64,000 nt of DNA. Source: Escherichia virus TH47. The notes under the pieces were generated by a model, which searched no databases, was not told where the DNA came from, and saw only the letters and a program-made list of their open reading frames with translations. The DNA is taken from sequence record MT446416.1; one strand, written 5' to 3'. The position numbers were made by a program, and so were the translations under genes. The first letter of the stretch is position 1. Every line of letters begins with the position of its first letter. Positions 21,345 to 41,251 of the stretch are shown piece by piece.

Positions 21345-21350
21345 TAAAAA

Positions 21351-21380
21351 AGGGAGACATAAGTCTCCCTTTTCTTTTAT
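21351..21380. terminator. bidirectional rho-independent terminator
   Basis: agggagac/gtctccct stem, A-run upstream, T-run downstream; between convergent genes. Confidence 0.7.
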
Positions 21381-22306
21381 ACAGCCATTGGTGCTTTGAT
21401 TGTTGGCATTGGATCGTAATTAACTAATTTGAAAGAATCCATAGTGAAATCTTCAATATCAGTAATAGTAGGATCTAACCATAATTCTGGTAATGTACGT
21501 GGTTCACGTTGGAGTTGCTCTTTTACTTGTTCAATATGGTTTTGATAGATATGGCAGTCGCCACCATTCCAAATAAATTCACCAACATCTAACCCAGTAA
21601 TTTGTGCAATCATATGAGTTAGTAGTGAGTAACTACTAATGTTAAATGGTACACCAAGGAATAAATCAGCACTGCGTTGATGAAGAATACAACTTAGTTT
21701 ACCCTGTACAACACAAAACTGCACAAAGCTATGACAGGGTGGCAAAGTCATAGCATCAAGCTCACCAACGTTCCATGCACTTAGAATGTGACGACGACCG
21801 TATGGATCAGTATTGATACCTTCAATAACTTGTTTTAGCTGGTCAGTTACACGACGCATAATAACACCATGTGAACCAGTATAATCAATAACTTTATACC
21901 CTTTATCTTTTAGTTCTTGAATTTCTTCAGTACTGGAACTGAATTTATAATCTTCCCATTCACGCCATTGTTTACCATAAACTGGGCCAAGCTCACCATC
22001 AGAATACCCAAGGCTTACACCTTGATTAAGGTAGTTGTCTGTCCAAATTGTTTTCTTTTCTACATCACGTGTCCCGTGTAAAATTTCACACAGACGACGC
22101 TCATCGTGAGAACCTTCAATAAACCATAACAATTCTGAAGTCATTGCTTTCCAAGCCAAACGTTTAGTAGTTACTGCTGGGAAACCTTCTTTTAGGTCAA
22201 AACGCATTTGTTGTCCGATTAGCTTGATAGTGCCAACACCAGTACGATCAACGCTTTCGACACCTTGATCCAGAATTCTTTGATATAGTTCTTGTAGTTG
22301 TTTCAT
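21377..22306 (-). CDS. thyA: thymidylate synthase
   Basis: DRTGVGT, LPPCHSFVQF (catalytic Cys), GKLSCILHQRSADLFLGVPFNI, C-terminal IKAPMAV; about 33-aa in-frame insertion relative to E. coli ThyA. Confidence 0.92.
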   Translation of the reverse strand: MKQLQELYQRILDQGVESVDRTGVGTIKLIGQQMRFDLKEGFPAVTTKRLAWKAMTSELLWFIEGSHDERRLCEILHGTRDVEKKTIWTDNYLNQGVSLGYSDGELGPVYGKQWREWEDYKFSSSTEEIQELKDKGYKVIDYTGSHGVIMRRVTDQLKQVIEGINTDPYGRRHILSAWNVGELDAMTLPPCHSFVQFCVVQGKLSCILHQRSADLFLGVPFNISSYSLLTHMIAQITGLDVGEFIWNGGDCHIYQNHIEQVKEQLQREPRTLPELWLDPTITDIEDFTMDSFKLVNYDPMPTIKAPMAV

Positions 22307-22899
22307 TTTACGTCCTTGAAAAATGTAATAAAGTGTTCCATGTGTTTTTGTGTAGCATTACGTGAACCAATCCCAGTCCAGTTACCGTGTGGTGCTGGTA
22401 TTGAGAATGTTTCAGTAAACTCTTTCAGTACTGTATCATAATAAAATACAGAGCGAGTGTTCATATCATAACAATATATTTCTGGATTATCAACTGAATC
22501 CATATACATCTGTACTGCCCATGCAGTTCCACCTGAAACTTGCGTAGGTGATGTAATATTTGCAATACAATATACTCTTTTAGTATTAAGTATCTGATAA
22601 CTATTTCTTGCAAGTAATTTATATACATACGAACCGGGCTTCGGAACTGTTCGGCGTAAAGAGTAACATGCAATGTTTAATTGTTTTAATATTGAACTAT
22701 CACAAAGGATATTGGATGGAATTTCTAATATAGTATTTTCATCTACGCTGCTTTGGTGACCCTTGAATGAAAAATTTATTACTTCAAATCCATTGTCTTT
22801 TGCATAGATAGAAAAAAGGCGGTCAGCACCTGCTGCCCCGCCACTGAAACATACATTAGATAAACCATTGATTGCTTCATCTAATTCTATTTTATTCAT
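22303..22899 (-). CDS. Rossmann-fold protein with DprA/LOG-like G-G-A-x-G-A-D signature, function unknown
   Basis: CFSGGAAGADRLF motif; ATGA overlap with thyA start. Confidence 0.4.
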   Translation of the reverse strand: MNKIELDEAINGLSNVCFSGGAAGADRLFSIYAKDNGFEVINFSFKGHQSSVDENTILEIPSNILCDSSILKQLNIACYSLRRTVPKPGSYVYKLLARNSYQILNTKRVYCIANITSPTQVSGGTAWAVQMYMDSVDNPEIYCYDMNTRSVFYYDTVLKEFTETFSIPAPHGNWTGIGSRNATQKHMEHFITFFKDVK

Positions 22900-22904
22900 T
22901 TATA

Positions 22905-23558
22905 TTATTTTGCTTTACGTTCTGCAAATGCCTGTTTAACTTTCTCAATTGCTTTGGTTTGTGAAATTCCTTCTGGGATTTCAATATAGAAAGTTTTGCT
23001 ATCAGGTGCTACAGGTGTTGCTTGAACTTGTGGACGTAGAGATGGTTCTAAGTTGTAAGCACGTTCAAAGTGCTCTTTAGCCAACTGCTCATAACGTTGT
23101 GCATCTTTAAGTAGTTGCTCAACAATGGTAGCTTCTTCAACAGAAGTATCAACTTCTTGTGGCTTGAATGGGTTGTATTCTTTAACTTTACCATCTTCAT
23201 GTTTTTTAGTATCATTATCATTGATTGCGTTGTTTAGAACATCAAGAGAAATCTTACTGTTTCCGCCAACATGCATATCAATATCACAAGTACGTGCACG
23301 ACGCAAATGTTGTAGATTATGAAGAACATCTAGCATTTTGCGACCGTCTAGATGACCAATCTTATGCATAACTTCCCACAAATCTACATTCGATTGACCT
23401 TGATTCATTACTAAATCTGCAACAGATTGAGCATATGCTTCAGGAAGTGAGTCGCGATAAACAATGAGACAATGTTCTGGATCATCAGGGAGTGAACGCC
23501 ATACCACAAATACTCGTGAACCCGTATTACGTACTACACCAACGTGACGAATAGCCAT
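22905..23558 (-). CDS. hypothetical protein
   Basis: 217-aa ORF with AAAGGAGAA SD. Confidence 0.5.
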   Translation of the reverse strand: MAIRHVGVVRNTGSRVFVVWRSLPDDPEHCLIVYRDSLPEAYAQSVADLVMNQGQSNVDLWEVMHKIGHLDGRKMLDVLHNLQHLRRARTCDIDMHVGGNSKISLDVLNNAINDNDTKKHEDGKVKEYNPFKPQEVDTSVEEATIVEQLLKDAQRYEQLAKEHFERAYNLEPSLRPQVQATPVAPDSKTFYIEIPEGISQTKAIEKVKQAFAERKAK

Positions 23559-23560
23559 TA

Positions 23561-23791
23561 TTATTCTCCTTTATTTTGTTCAGCAGCAGCTTGTGCAGCA
23601 TCAGCTTCTTCTTGTGCTTTGATATCTTCGAGTGCAGAGTTAGCAAACTCAACAAACTTAGATACGACTGGAGCAACATCAACAAGTTCTTCGACTTTAA
23701 ATGAATTACGAGCAACAGCAGCTTCCATGATTTTAGCAGCGTTGATTAGGTCGATTAGGGTTAGTTGAATTTTTTCTGGTTCTTGTTCCAT
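23561..23791 (-). CDS. small acidic hypothetical protein
   Basis: Start placed at ATG 23791 (GGAGAG SD); ORF-track start 23890 would overlap the upstream terminator and promoter. Confidence 0.4.
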   Translation of the reverse strand: MEQEPEKIQLTLIDLINAAKIMEAAVARNSFKVEELVDVAPVVSKFVEFANSALEDIKAQEEADAAQAAAEQNKGE

Positions 23792-23825
23792 TTTAATACT
23801 CTCCATGTATGTTGTTACAAATATA

Positions 23826-23853
23826 ATTATATCACCTTTTTCCAAGCTGTCCC
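23826..23853 (-). promoter_or_regulatory. promoter GGGACA-N16-TGaTATAAT
   Basis: Minus-strand GGGACAgcttggaaaaaggtgaTATAAT; same architecture as sites at 44835 and 57615. Confidence 0.55.
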
Positions 23854-23856
23854 GCT

Positions 23857-23888
23857 GAAAAAAGTAGAGAACGGAATTTTCCGTTCTC
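23857..23888 (-). terminator. rho-independent terminator after the VWA gene
   Basis: Perfect 8-bp stem gagaacgg/ccgttctc with T-run on minus strand; immediately upstream of the promoter. Confidence 0.65.
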
Positions 23889-23900
23889 ATTATTTAGTAC

Positions 23901-25310
23901 TTAGCTACGTTGACGCTTTTTGTCAGCTTCATATTCGTAGTGTACAGTTTCGCCAAATGGTGCTTGTTTGTTAGGATTACTGTGGATAACAAACAGTGTC
24001 TTACAGTAATCAGGATCACCCCATGACTGCCACGGCTCACCATCGGTAAACATAATAAGCTGTTTAGGCTTATAGTTGTCATGCTTCATATGAACCCATA
24101 CTGCTTCAAAGTCAGTACCACCACCACCTTTCACTGGATATTCGAGAATCTTACTCTCTTCACCAGTTTTGTAATCTTTAACAGTATAAACTTCAGTATC
24201 GAACGTCATGATACGGATTTTAAATTGTTTAAACTGCTTAGTGATACCCAGTACTTCACTGATGAAATCACGGAGCATATCTTCAGAGATAGAACCGGAT
24301 GCATCTAGTGCAATTGCAATATCAATATCATCATCTGGTTTCATGCCTGGGAAGATTGGATTCCCGTAGAATGAACCAGTACTACCAAAACCAGCACCCC
24401 ATGAACGACGATTAGGACTTTGATAAGTTGCGTCAGACTTCAACCAGCTACGCAGTGTGCGGTGAAGTTTGGAACGCCAGTCAATCTTAGGTTCTTTGAA
24501 GTTGTTAATCATACGTGCGATTTCAGCAGGAGTACCACCTGCACGAGCAGCATTCATCATTGCTGTTTTGAAATCATCCATATAATCACGTTTTTGTTTA
24601 TCACTTGAACCACCTTCTTGACCTTCTTGTGGAACGTCATGCTGGTCGATTGTTGTACCTTTGCCTTTACCATCTTTGATATCACCAAAAGTACCGCGTG
24701 ATTTACCTTCACCCTCACCACTACCAGCCTGTGGATTTCCTTCACCTTCCCCGTCTTGATCCTGTTTATCTTCTTCTTCGAGAATGTTATAAATCTCTTC
24801 AGCAGTCATACCATCGTACTTTTTATCGTACAGCCATTGGCTTTGGATTTTACCAATTTTATCACGAACAAGAATCTGGTTAATTGCATAGTCAGCAGCA
24901 CGGTTATAACGCTGCGGGTCACGCATACCACGACGCAAGAAGTGGTCATATGCACAGTGAAGAATCTCATGACAGATAACTGCAATCAGGTTTTCATCAG
25001 TCAAACCTTCTGTCATTTCTTTAAGTTGTTCTTCAGTTACTTCAGGATGTTTCTCACGAATTGCTTCTTCGTATGCGGACTTTTTGGATTGGTCCTGAAT
25101 ACCCATGATGAATTCTACGTTGTAGAATAAATGCTTACCATCTACTGCCAAAGTACGACACCATGTATTGTTTGCAACTGGACGCAGACGAGAAGCCAGT
25201 ACACCAAAGAATGGGAATGTTAGCATTAAAGATGTGCGAGCTAAGATCAGACGATCTTGACATTCTTTCTGGAGAGCCGGAGTAACATCACTGAAACGTT
25301 TATCTGACAT
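23901..25310 (-). CDS. VWA-domain protein with N-terminal HExxH metallopeptidase-like domain
   Basis: HEILH motif in N-terminal half; MIDAS-like DASGS in C-terminal VWA region; GAGGAAA SD. Confidence 0.75.
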   Translation of the reverse strand: MSDKRFSDVTPALQKECQDRLILARTSLMLTFPFFGVLASRLRPVANNTWCRTLAVDGKHLFYNVEFIMGIQDQSKKSAYEEAIREKHPEVTEEQLKEMTEGLTDENLIAVICHEILHCAYDHFLRRGMRDPQRYNRAADYAINQILVRDKIGKIQSQWLYDKKYDGMTAEEIYNILEEEDKQDQDGEGEGNPQAGSGEGEGKSRGTFGDIKDGKGKGTTIDQHDVPQEGQEGGSSDKQKRDYMDDFKTAMMNAARAGGTPAEIARMINNFKEPKIDWRSKLHRTLRSWLKSDATYQSPNRRSWGAGFGSTGSFYGNPIFPGMKPDDDIDIAIALDASGSISEDMLRDFISEVLGITKQFKQFKIRIMTFDTEVYTVKDYKTGEESKILEYPVKGGGGTDFEAVWVHMKHDNYKPKQLIMFTDGEPWQSWGDPDYCKTLFVIHSNPNKQAPFGETVHYEYEADKKRQRS

Positions 25311-25342
25311 TTGTATTTCCTCGTTTAGTTAAGATAAAAGAA

Positions 25343-25360
25343 GGATACCATGTGGTATCC
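25343..25360 (-). promoter_or_regulatory. intercistronic hairpin (possible attenuator) between ATPase and VWA genes
   Basis: Palindrome ggatacca/tggtatcc followed on the minus strand by tcttttat. Confidence 0.35.
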
Positions 25361-25385
25361 TCCTTGTCAACACTCTTTTTAATTA

Positions 25386-26714
25386 TTAACCAAGAGAGCG
25401 TGCTTTACGTACTAGGTCAGAGTACTTCATAACGAAGTCTTTAAACGCTGGTACATCTTTAATCGTAATCGCTACTTTATGAAGCGTGATGGTACGAATC
25501 GCCAGTACTGCCAGTTCTGCTTGAGTTGCAGAGAAGTTATGGTCTAGGAAGGTGATGAAGTTGTTGCACAGCTTACCCCAATCTTCCACTGGTAGACGTT
25601 GTTCTTGCTTCTCATTGTAGAGGTCGATAATTTTGTAAACCAGATTCAGAGTGATGAAGTAGTTCGCGGAAATATCAAGCGAAGCATCAATCTCTTTAAT
25701 CTCACCCTGTAGGATGGACATGGTATCTGGTAGTTTAGCTACGTTATCAACATACTCGATGTATTCAGTTGCTACGCCTTCACCAACACGACCTGCAATC
25801 ATCGCACGGAACACTTCTTTATCAATGTTCTTAACTTTCTTCAGATCTTCGTAGCGTGCTACTGCTTCCCATGAACGTGGAGAAGTACCACCACAGTGAG
25901 AAGGATCTTGTGGGCTAAGGGTGTTGAAGTGTTTAGCACCAGTGTTGTTGATGAACGCAACAGTTGCTGGGTTCAAACGCTTGCCAATCGCATAATCGTT
26001 AATCCAATCTTGATGATAAGGAATCATTTCGATGTGGGTCATACGGTCACGCAGTGGTGTAGCTAGAGAGAACGTTACACCGCCATCAGTTTCACGGTTA
26101 CCTGCTGCGAGAATCAGTGCAGTCTTAGGTAGCTTCATCTCACCAACACAACGGTCGAGGATTAGCTGGTAAGACGCTGCCTGTACAATCGGCATTGCAG
26201 AGTTGATTTCGTCAAACAGGATAACACCTTTCCAATCATCGGGCAATTTCAGTACTTTTGGTGCTGCCCACACAACTGCTGTTTCAGCGATGTAATCTTG
26301 TGCACTAGCCAGTTCAGATTCAATCAGTTGCTTACCATCCATATCAAGGAACACTTTCTCTGGAACTGGAATACCACGAAGGTCACTTGGTTCAATCTGA
26401 GACAAACGGAAATCGATAAAGTTAGTGTCTTGGTCGATTAGTTTGGCTTCAAACGCTGCCAGTTCACGGCGAAGTTGATCGGCATTTTCAGTATCAGCTT
26501 CGATTTGTTGTTTCATGAACTCAATTTTTGCCACGTTATCTTTACGCAGTGGGTAGTTCTCATCAGCGTATTGACGTGCGATAGCAGATTTACCGATACC
26601 AGGGCTACCCCAAATCATCAGGCTATCTTGAATCATGTCAGCCAGTGCCATTGCTTCTTTAGCTTTCTTAGGAGTCAGTTTTACGTTCAGGATATCGTTG
26701 TTTTGAGTAGACAT
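25386..26714 (-). CDS. MoxR/CbbQ-like AAA+ ATPase
   Basis: Walker A GSPGIGKS, Walker B ILFDEIN, coiled-coil insertion; AAAGGAAAA SD. Confidence 0.75.
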   Translation of the reverse strand: MSTQNNDILNVKLTPKKAKEAMALADMIQDSLMIWGSPGIGKSAIARQYADENYPLRKDNVAKIEFMKQQIEADTENADQLRRELAAFEAKLIDQDTNFIDFRLSQIEPSDLRGIPVPEKVFLDMDGKQLIESELASAQDYIAETAVVWAAPKVLKLPDDWKGVILFDEINSAMPIVQAASYQLILDRCVGEMKLPKTALILAAGNRETDGGVTFSLATPLRDRMTHIEMIPYHQDWINDYAIGKRLNPATVAFINNTGAKHFNTLSPQDPSHCGGTSPRSWEAVARYEDLKKVKNIDKEVFRAMIAGRVGEGVATEYIEYVDNVAKLPDTMSILQGEIKEIDASLDISANYFITLNLVYKIIDLYNEKQEQRLPVEDWGKLCNNFITFLDHNFSATQAELAVLAIRTITLHKVAITIKDVPAFKDFVMKYSDLVRKARSLG

Positions 26715-26885: not shown

Positions 26886-26913
26886 ATTATATCACATCGT
26901 TCAGGCTTGTCAA
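26886..26913 (-). promoter_or_regulatory. promoter P2 (TTGACA-N16-TGaTATAAT) with A-rich UP element
   Basis: Minus-strand aaaaaaaagttgTTGACAagcctgaacgatgtgaTATAAT; part of a ~70-bp direct repeat. Confidence 0.65.
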
Positions 26914-26979: not shown

Positions 26980-27007
26980 ATTATATCACATCATTCGGCG
27001 TTGTCAA
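26980..27007 (-). promoter_or_regulatory. promoter P1 (TTGACA-N16-TGaTATAAT) with A-rich UP element
   Basis: Minus-strand aaaaaaaaagatgTTGACAacgccgaatgatgtgaTATAAT; second copy of the repeat. Confidence 0.65.
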
Positions 27008-39256: not shown

Positions 39257-41251
39257 TTAATATTTTTTTGTGTATTTTATATTACCAGAGTTGTAAATCT
39301 TATAATATCCCAATACATCACAGCAAATTTGTCTCTCAGTTAAGTTAATATCATGACCTTTCTTGACCAATTTATGTTTTTGACATTTCTGACGTGAAAT
39401 CCTCTCATGTGTTTGTGGGTCATAATAAAAATATCCGGGTTCTGTATAGCTATCAAACTCAAAGCCAAGAACTGTATAAAGATCACCACTACTCCAATCC
39501 ATATCCGCATATGTCAATAATGATTGTGGATTATATACTGTTTCAAAATATTTTAGTAATTTTGATGCACCACCAACAACTGTACCGGATGAACAGTATC
39601 TGATTAATTCATATTCATAGTTTTTATCAAACCTTGATTTACCAAAGGTCATAACTGCAACTAAATCACTTCCATAGTAAAGTCCAATGTGAATACTTGC
39701 TTGTGCAACACCTTGAATATGGTGTGATTTAGTAAACATATTACTTACTTGTTTGTCTATATTTCTAACAGTACATTTTCTAGCATAAATTCTATTTGAC
39801 ACTAGAAGTTTATTCTTTAAACGTTCCTTGATAATTTTATTTGTTAATGGGTTATCCCATTCATCTTCATAAATGTGAATAAGATTCACCCCATGTTTTA
39901 AACAATCCAATACCTTATCTTGATGTTTAGTGGAATTTACATTTTCATCATTATGCCAATACACACCATTAAATTCAATAGCTAGATTACGGTCTGGGAT
40001 ATACACATCCAACTCTTTAGGTTTCAGCACTGAACGGTCGTTTTCTATAATTTGCATATTTTGTATTAATGATTTTATATAATCAACTAAATCTTTCTCT
40101 TTCAATGAATGACCATTATTTTTCTGACACTTACATTTCACTTTATGATTTTTATACTTACTATAAAACAATTCATCACAATACTCACACCAAAATGGGT
40201 ATTCGTCTGTATTAACTTTCATCATTAGGTCGGTGTTTTCAAATAATGGAATATAGTTTTTATCAATATTTGCAACAATGATATTATATCTTTCGTCTAG
40301 ACGAGCAAGTGACATTTTCTCTTTATACTCATCAGTCTGTGAGTAGTGTTCTGAACCATATCTATTTTTTGTGGTTTCTTTCATTTTTTCAATGATAGAA
40401 TTATTTTGGGCTGGGTGTTTTACACCATATCGCTCCACATTGGTATTATGAACTTTTTCCTGAACACTCATATTGCTCATTGGGTAAAATGAATTATACT
40501 TCAACGTGTTGGTGTTTTTTATTTTATCTTGGACAATTTTATTTGATAGTGGATTGCCACCATATCGTTCAAGATTTGTTTTATTGATTTTTTCACGAAT
40601 CGTCGGTGATGATAAAGAATACTCAGCACCGTATCTTAATATATTTGTGTTTTTGGCTTTCTCTTTTACTTCATTTCTTTTGCTTTGGAATTCAACACCA
40701 TACTTTTTTAAATTTGTTGCTTTTACTTTATTGAATATTTCAGAGTTTTGGTTTGGATATTCACAACCATATCGCTCTATATTAGTTTGTTTGATTTTAT
40801 CTTTAGTTTCTGATGTTTGTAAATTAGATGAGACACCATAACGCTCAATGTTAGTTTTTTCTTTCTTTTGTTTTACTTCTTGTATTTGGGACACATTAGA
40901 TACACCATACATATCCATTAATGTTGATTTTGTTTTATTAGTTCGATTTTTATAATACATTTCATGGCATACATTACATGTATTTTTCTTATTAATCACA
41001 TAGTCATCACAAAATTTATAAAATCCTTTTTGGAAATTTTTGTATCTTGCTTTTTTTCCGCAATATGCAGTTGGAACGGTTGTTATATCATTCATGAACA
41101 TATATAGAATTTTATATATTTCGAAATCAGTTTTTGGTTCTATTCCAAAAGTAGAAAGGAGAACCCTCACACGAGAGTCCCCTTTGTATAAATGTACCCA
41201 TGAATTAATATGTTTTGACAACAAAAGTTTTTTTAATTCTTCATTGTTCAT
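39257..41251 (-). CDS. homing-endonuclease-like protein with ten ~23-aa RYG repeats and a Vsr-like nuclease domain
   Basis: Cys-rich N-terminus; ten ~23-aa R/K-Y-G/N repeats; C-terminal LAIEFNGVYWH motif typical of PD-(D/E)xK homing-endonuclease-like domains. Confidence 0.6.
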   Translation of the reverse strand: MNNEELKKLLLSKHINSWVHLYKGDSRVRVLLSTFGIEPKTDFEIYKILYMFMNDITTVPTAYCGKKARYKNFQKGFYKFCDDYVINKKNTCNVCHEMYYKNRTNKTKSTLMDMYGVSNVSQIQEVKQKKEKTNIERYGVSSNLQTSETKDKIKQTNIERYGCEYPNQNSEIFNKVKATNLKKYGVEFQSKRNEVKEKAKNTNILRYGAEYSLSSPTIREKINKTNLERYGGNPLSNKIVQDKIKNTNTLKYNSFYPMSNMSVQEKVHNTNVERYGVKHPAQNNSIIEKMKETTKNRYGSEHYSQTDEYKEKMSLARLDERYNIIVANIDKNYIPLFENTDLMMKVNTDEYPFWCEYCDELFYSKYKNHKVKCKCQKNNGHSLKEKDLVDYIKSLIQNMQIIENDRSVLKPKELDVYIPDRNLAIEFNGVYWHNDENVNSTKHQDKVLDCLKHGVNLIHIYEDEWDNPLTNKIIKERLKNKLLVSNRIYARKCTVRNIDKQVSNMFTKSHHIQGVAQASIHIGLYYGSDLVAVMTFGKSRFDKNYEYELIRYCSSGTVVGGASKLLKYFETVYNPQSLLTYADMDWSSGDLYTVLGFEFDSYTEPGYFYYDPQTHERISRQKCQKHKLVKKGHDINLTERQICCDVLGYYKIYNSGNIKYTKKY
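40277..40939 (-). repeat. in-frame ~69-bp tandem repeats encoding the RYG modules
   Basis: RYG/KYG/RYN recur every 22-24 residues (protein positions ~115-323). Confidence 0.6.

Follow-up and report, generated by a model that had tools for sequence, protein, structure and literature searches.

What does a small Rossmann-type protein do when its gene abuts that of thymidylate synthase in a jumbo coliphage? The question is raised by a gene on the minus strand of Escherichia virus TH47 (sequence record MT446416.1), located at positions 22303..22899 of the window, as the whole analysed stretch of 64,000 nucleotides (nt) is called here. The gene starts with ATG and encodes a protein of 198 amino acids (aa), of which residues 17-26 read CFSGGAAGAD; its TGA stop codon (22305..22303) shares bases with the ATG of thyA (22306..22304), giving an ATGA stop/start overlap on the minus strand (22303..22306). 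On these points the reading of the sequence bears out the initial annotation of the locus. The region shares 99% identity with Escherichia phages Turkey3, WPEC5 and Ecwhy_1, among others, and 83% with PBECO4 and 121Q, and the window belongs to Asteriusvirus, representing a RaK2/121Q-like jumbo myovirus infecting E. coli. According to structural modelling, the protein is a single-domain, circularly permuted Rossmannoid of the SLOG (SMF/DprA-LOG) type, from a large, mainly phage-borne family, and analysis of its sequence and surroundings tentatively suggests, with a likelihood put somewhat below even, a nucleoside-5'-phosphate-binding or -processing module tied to the metabolism of deoxynucleoside monophosphates (dNMPs).

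The initial annotation had suggested a shared role of the two genes in nucleotide metabolism on the basis of the ATGA overlap. The overlap is genuine yet commonplace; 4-nt overlaps occur in 8 of the 68 same-strand adjacent pairs of open reading frames (ORFs) in the window, and overlaps of any length in 17 of them. Since such overlaps are frequent there, this argument is weak when taken alone, but the metabolic link is backed independently by the dNMP kinase and thyA neighbourhoods described below, and it is this comparative context, not the overlap, that provides its strongest support. The 3' end of the SLOG gene contains a Shine-Dalgarno-like AAGGA of thyA (22313..22317, minus strand), separated from the thyA ATG by 6 nt. 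The ATG of the SLOG gene itself lies 5 nt past the stop codon of the preceding gene, encoding a 217-aa protein, and no obvious ribosome-binding site was found in its upstream sequence.

Motifs and predicted fold of the SLOG protein

A word-indexed search with the SLOG protein returned 95 homologues, and an exhaustive profile search extended the family to at least 2,837 clusters (50% identity, E ≤ 1e-3; 744 at E ≤ 1e-30), of which most are proteins of 175-210 aa that stand alone; the gene is a real one and not a chance ORF. This very common family is distributed among jumbo, T4-like, N4-like and crAss-like phages and some bacteria, and its members are usually labelled 'hypothetical' or 'DprA-like'. 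The protein matches PHROG 768 ('DprA-like DNA recombination-mediator protein'; E 4.2e-27, residues 4-164 against profile positions 23-184 of 191), and one GenBank record labels the gene DUF2493. The search of NCBIfam gave no match, no SLOG-type Pfam model scored above threshold, and PDB sequence searches with the protein and with a 43-sequence profile revealed nothing meaningful. The protein joins a known superfamily as a new, uncurated member, for which public phage records already contain loose annotations.

Among 43 aligned sequences, the invariant positions include S19-G20-G21-A22-x-G24-A25-D26, R83/P86 and L95-L96-x-R98-N99-x-x-Q102 in the N-terminal half, and G123-G124-T125-x-W127-A128 and G176-I177-G178-S179-R180 in the C-terminal half. 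The SLOG motif set, consisting of Gly-rich loops and a helix Arg (GSR, GxxGxD/M, xxR(N/K), (S/P)GG(x)T), is recognisable in these sequences as SGGAxGAD, LLxRNxxQ, SGGTAWA and GIGSR, all of them invariant or nearly so, and a reading of E. coli PpnN shows the same set. The corresponding segments of the TH47 protein are SGGAAGAD (19-26), LLARNSYQ (95-102), SGGTAWA (122-128) and GIGSR (176-180). By analogy, these four loops would be those forming the pocket for the nucleotide phosphate and sugar in solved SLOG proteins.

AlphaFold 2 modelling (pLDDT 96.7, pTM 0.92) predicted a three-layer Rossmannoid α/β fold, and the nearest experimental structures are of the LOG, DprA and YpsA types, which places the protein in the SLOG superfamily. 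The structural comparison values were 12.4 for 3imk (Pfam cpYpsA), 7.9 for a type-II LOG, 7.7 for TT1465, 7.5 for ShosA, 7.2 for both HpDprA and a PpnN homologue and 7.1 for YpsA; the top Foldseek match was again 3imk (E 1.3e-3). The GSR strand, which is the first in DprA and LOG, comes last in the motif order of the phage protein, and this feature, together with the match to cpYpsA, indicates a circularly permuted SLOG domain.

The best structural match, cpYpsA (PF12694; PDB code 3imk, 'putative molybdenum carrier protein' of Syntrophus aciditrophicus), shares the permuted topology with the phage protein, where GIGSR 176-180 follows the SGGT loop. The matches of relatives to the DprA model, which begin at model position 70, agree with this permuted order. 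The phage protein differs from 3imk in an insert of about 40 residues forming a β-meander (strands 141-164). The PF12694 model is unmatched by the SLOG protein and is hit by one of the 43 relatives at E 0.076, and 3imk is itself a protein of no known function. The best Pfam match, a weak one, was to YAcAr/DUF2493 (PF10686), covering residues 15-44 over the SGGAxGAD strand-loop; with 19 bits, short of the gathering score of 28.2, E 0.0013 and 30 aligned residues it does not qualify for membership, and 18 of the 43 relatives match the model below threshold. The SLOG domain of ThsA and YpsA, sensor-type SLOGs of the YpsA clade, differ from the phage protein, which stands alone without a SIR2 or TIR partner and has another genomic context.

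The initial annotation had called the product a DprA/LOG-like Rossmann protein, and at the level of the superfamily the fold and the motifs agree with this; an assignment to DprA or LOG proper did not hold, as the respective Pfam models are unmatched and the PGGxGTxxE motif is replaced. In comparison with LOG/PpnN (PDB codes 5wq3, 9us2), this motif corresponds to S122-G-G-T-A-W-A-V-Q130, with no Glu at +3 or +5 from T125, the Pfam LOG model found no match, and the hhalign comparison with PpnN was not significant. These features make it very improbable that the protein is a strict LOG-type phosphoribohydrolase, acting on nucleoside monophosphates by the Arg/Glu mechanism: the segment SGGTAWAVQ offers A128 and Q130 in place of Glu, and position 130 varies between Q and E among the relatives, which was judged unlikely for a catalytic base.

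The relationship to DprA raises another explanation, possible if doubtful, namely a DprA-like single-stranded DNA (ssDNA)-binding or recombination-mediator protein, whose pocket would grip ssDNA nucleotides in replication, recombination or repair, the adjacency of thyA being incidental. It agrees with the name of PHROG 768 and RefSeq annotations, with a suggestion that DprA/Smf proteins of jumbo phages serve as an extra ssDNA binder (Iyer et al. 2021, PMC7824862), and with the invariance of both arginines that are motif-equivalent to the ssDNA-binding R52 and R143. HpDprA and ShosA hold ssDNA by the arginine of the GSR motif (R52 in HpDprA) and that of the RN motif (R143) (PMC12961424). LOG enzymes use the same positions for nucleotide monophosphates, so R98 and R180 do not discriminate between the readings. 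Several features speak against a DprA assignment: the Pfam model DprA/Smf (PF02481, DNA_processg_A; PDB codes 4ljk, 3uqz and 8zva, including ShosA) is unmatched by the SLOG protein and reached by 11 of the 43 relatives at sub-threshold level only; the hhalign comparison with E. coli Smf was not significant (E 0.41); the protein has no basic bias (isoelectric point 6.4, family median 7.0); and, unlike DprA/Smf and ShosA, it is circularly permuted and lacks the SAM and winged-helix accessory domains, the extra domains of bacterial DprA being absent.

Coupling to dNMP kinase and thymidylate synthase

For the comparison of gene neighbourhoods, 79 IMG/VR loci were fetched, their ORFs called and the neighbours clustered; the SLOG ORF was present in 73 of them, to which the following counts refer. 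In 30 loci, a dNMP kinase gene (DNMK, PF21448, 66.7 bits) directly precedes the SLOG gene on the same strand, and in 27 of these the two genes overlap, 13 times by 4 nt; within two genes of the SLOG gene, DNMK is found in 34 loci. The DNMK-SLOG pair stays together even where the tail-sheath and PTH2-like genes around it lie on another side or strand, and the order DNMK-SLOG-sheath occurs in Sinorhizobium phage Phosso and Agrobacterium phage Atu_ph07. In one locus, a dCMP deaminase gene lies 3 kb from the SLOG gene. In 13 of 13 RaK2-like loci (GAP32 and RaK2 were among the phages examined), thyA is no further than two genes away from the SLOG gene, usually in the order 217aa-102aa-SLOG-115aa-ThyA. 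In most of those outside Asteriusvirus, the 102-aa gene located upstream overlaps the SLOG gene, and the 115-aa gene, encoding an acidic, coiled-coil-like protein, separates it from thyA; both small genes are absent in Asteriusvirus, the lineage of the window, where the SLOG gene abuts thyA. Pairing with both enzymes is hard to explain otherwise than by a role in dNMP metabolism, and it is left unexplained by a DprA-like function.

The window also contains a DNMK gene (38269..38949, minus strand; PF21448, 42.7 bits), which directly precedes the tail sheath gene (35511..38174, minus strand), with no SLOG gene between them; in several Atu_ph07-like loci this is the place of the SLOG gene. Because the DNMK gene of the window keeps its place before the sheath gene, it can be inferred that in the RaK2-like lineage the SLOG gene was moved away from DNMK and now stands beside another dTMP-handling enzyme. 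By our own rough estimate, the chance of a relocated gene landing next to one of about a dozen nucleotide-metabolism genes in a genome of about 550 genes is a few percent. The SLOG protein is 52-59% identical to its counterparts in GAP32 and RaK2, similar to its neighbours, and ThyA is 71-80% identical; the SLOG gene is stably inherited across the RaK2-like genera, which fits a housekeeping role better than that of an arms-race gene.

The thyA (td) gene (21377..22306, minus strand) encodes a canonical thymidylate synthase of 309 aa, as indicated by the matches to Pfam Thymidylat_synt (3.6e-101) and to the NCBIfam equivalog model (343 bits, cutoff 327). The phage enzyme is 53% identical to E. 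coli ThyA and conserves the catalytic C191, the dUMP-specifying N222 and R21, R171/R172, D214, H252 and Y254, the phosphate-binding arginines being among the conserved residues; the possibility that it is a hydroxymethylase was rejected, the residues being canonical. Phage RaK2 possesses genes for TK, dNMP kinase, td, dCMP deaminase, DHFR and RNR, and DNA methylation is the only modification reported for it, with no hydroxymethylase or glucosyltransferase (PMC3622015). The canonical ThyA and the methylation-only report for RaK2 thus leave a role in DNA hypermodification, which had been implied at the outset by a proposal to analyse the nucleosides of phage DNA, without support.

If the SLOG protein belongs to dNMP metabolism, it would bind a nucleoside 5'-phosphate moiety, with R98 of the RN motif and R180 of the GSR motif holding the phosphate like the equivalent arginines in DprA and LOG, and with D26, N99, Q102 and Q130 possibly reading the sugar or base. 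It might then take part in deoxynucleotide supply at the level of the monophosphates, partnering thymidylate synthase in TH47 and dNMP kinase in other lineages. It may be a (d)NMP-processing enzyme, e.g., an N-glycosidase removing unwanted monophosphates, or, alternatively, a non-catalytic (d)NMP- or ssDNA-binding partner of ThyA and dNMP kinase; a hydrolytic mechanism of the LOG type is not assumed because the catalytic Glu of LOG is absent. A more specific proposal, quite improbable as it stands, is that the permuted SLOG family represents an unrecognised component of phage deoxynucleotide metabolism working on 5-substituted or uracil-type monophosphates, either as a dNMP N-glycosidase ('pool sanitiser') or as an obligatory partner coupling ThyA and dNMP kinase to DNA. 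Were this so, the recurrent association with enzymes acting on dTMP or at uracil C5, namely ThyA, dNMP kinase and, in Desulfobulbales, CmoA/CmoB, would be explained by a common substrate.

Fusions, bacterial relatives and virion proteins

A number of observations weigh against linking the SLOG protein to dNMP metabolism, including the gene settings and fusions that are described below along with the rival explanations. About 26 of the 73 loci have no nucleotide-metabolism neighbour; as judged by eye, the loci lacking DNMK and ThyA contain genes for peptide-deformylase-like, homing-endonuclease-like and Ntn-hydrolase-like proteins and unknowns, all of which look uninformative. T4-type synteny may persist without a functional link, as exemplified by DNMK beside the sheath gene, and the loci with DNMK may go back to a small number of independent events. 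The catalytic Glu of LOG is missing, with A128 or Q130 at the candidate positions, and the literature search found no experiments or biochemical data for any member of the family.

Some of the settings agree with a DprA-like function. In Caulobacter phage Cr30 the SLOG gene directly follows gp47-gp46, and in three loci it is located between the genes for a clamp-loader subunit and a PD-(D/E)XK nuclease. Fusions with a RecA/KaiC-like P-loop domain exist, as does a C-terminal fusion with a Tudor/SH3-like domain similar to those by which CarD and UvrD bind RNA polymerase; when the Tudor-like C-terminal segment was used as the query, a word-indexed search returned nothing. The bacterial relatives, comprising at least 511 loci, show two main settings. 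The closest of them, from Flavobacteriaceae (Flavobacterium, Paenimyroides and Myroides), are 33-34% identical to the SLOG protein and keep the RN and Q motifs; their genes are arranged in the order SLOG, HTH-WYL-WCX regulator, topA, with a divergent miaB upstream, and this order resembles the widespread dprA-topA synteny. In E. coli, the neighbourhood is smf-smg-yrdD, the last gene being annotated as 'putative DNA topoisomerase'. In the second setting, a more distant subfamily of Desulfobulbales is encoded in cmoA-cmoB-SLOG(-HIT) operons with mnmE nearby (five loci and about 20 more), which links the family to genes for C5 modification of tRNA uridine-34.

Other contexts bear on a third explanation, a counter-defence SLOG protein that would serve as a sponge or cleaver of immune signals derived from NAD+ or ADP-ribose, e.g., cyclic ADP-ribose isomers, perhaps delivered early or packaged; this is considered rather unlikely. 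The GxD signature of the YpsA-like clade (PMC6459960) is present as G24-A25-D26, and viral YpsA-clade SLOG domains have been predicted to sense or cleave ADP-ribose-derived signals (Iyer et al. 2022, PMC9503650). A SLOG+NADAR fusion was found in a 2,942-aa polyvalent-type protein, and the SLOG domain also occurs inside the 3,820-aa N4-like virion RNA polymerase of Klebsiella phage Pylas and inside a 4,329-aa protein of the crAss-like cr109_1, both of the kind of large protein expected to enter the host by ejection. NAD salvage genes lie near the SLOG gene in two loci, and the stretch of phage WPEC5 syntenic to the window is annotated with a Macro-superfamily protein and several Nudix proteins. 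On the other hand, the search of PADLOC-DB with the SLOG protein gave no defence or anti-defence match at E ≤ 1, and literature searches turned up no experimentally established anti-Thoeris SLOG. The gene, moreover, is syntenic and vertically conserved across the RaK2-like genera like a housekeeping gene and not part of a variable accessory region, and most loci couple it tightly to DNMK or thyA and not to Macro, NADAR or Nudix genes.

Packaging is also touched upon by the virion proteome of phage phAPEC6, where three operon neighbours of the SLOG gene were detected, namely ThyA (gp259c, 3 peptides), the 217-aa homologue (gp262c) and the ATPase (gp265c) (PMC7247149). The phAPEC6 record (MK817115.1) contains an intact SLOG ORF of 197 aa (positions 1501-2094 of the fetched locus), annotated as two unrelated small coding sequences, gp261c and gp260c. 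Because the record splits the ORF in two, the absence of the SLOG protein from the proteome is uninformative and was rejected as evidence.

A fusion of SLOG with a His-phosphatase domain exists as well, and a 3,021-aa protein carries the SLOG domain along with an AlkB-like domain. The fusions with Tudor, NADAR and virion RNA polymerase and the WYL-topA and cmoA-cmoB neighbourhoods point to roles connected with nucleic acids or ADP-ribose instead of dNMP metabolism. The coupling to dNMP kinase and thymidylate synthase is a useful testable lead and not a demonstrated function. If the pairing does reflect function, the protein would be a missing player in phage DNA-precursor synthesis; should one of the rivals prove true, it would represent a novel ssDNA mediator or a novel class of sponges for immune signals. 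As a small soluble protein, it makes each of these readings directly testable.

A probable transcription unit around the SLOG gene

All genes of the surrounding cluster are encoded on the minus strand. The first of them encodes an AAA+ ATPase (25386..26714), similar to N4 gp24, and is followed by the gene for a DUF2201 metallopeptidase-like and VWA protein (23901..25310), similar to N4 gp25, and by the genes for two proteins of unknown function, of 109 aa (23561..23890, phrog_13789) and 217 aa (22905..23558, phrog_15894); the latter is conserved ahead of the SLOG gene in every RaK2-like locus. Ahead of the ATPase gene, a consensus scan indicated two promoter-like sites that fit the sigma-70 consensus perfectly (TTGACA-16-TATAAT, 12/12; 27007..26980 and 26913..26886, minus strand). 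Directly after thyA, before a convergent tail-fibre-like gene, lies a strong bidirectional hairpin (21346..21375) that resembles an intrinsic terminator and appears to end the unit. The predicted promoters and the terminator hairpin make a six-gene unit likely, running in the order AAA+ ATPase, DUF2201/VWA, 109-aa, 217-aa, SLOG and ThyA, with SLOG as the penultimate cistron. A further terminator-like hairpin (25365..25338) is located between the ATPase and DUF2201 genes.

In the GenBank record of phage WPEC5 (PV654397), the counterpart of the 217-aa gene (22905-23558) is labelled 'thymidylate synthase'. This assignment was rejected, as neither the Pfam nor the PHROG search revealed a match to Thymidylat_synt, and the label therefore looks like an annotation error.

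A 664-aa ORF at 39257-41251 (minus strand) matches DUF7487 (131.8 bits) and has no annotated counterpart at this position in the 99%-identical phage WPEC5; it probably represents a mobile insertion of the homing-endonuclease type. DUF7487 ORFs also flank the SLOG gene in three of the fetched loci.

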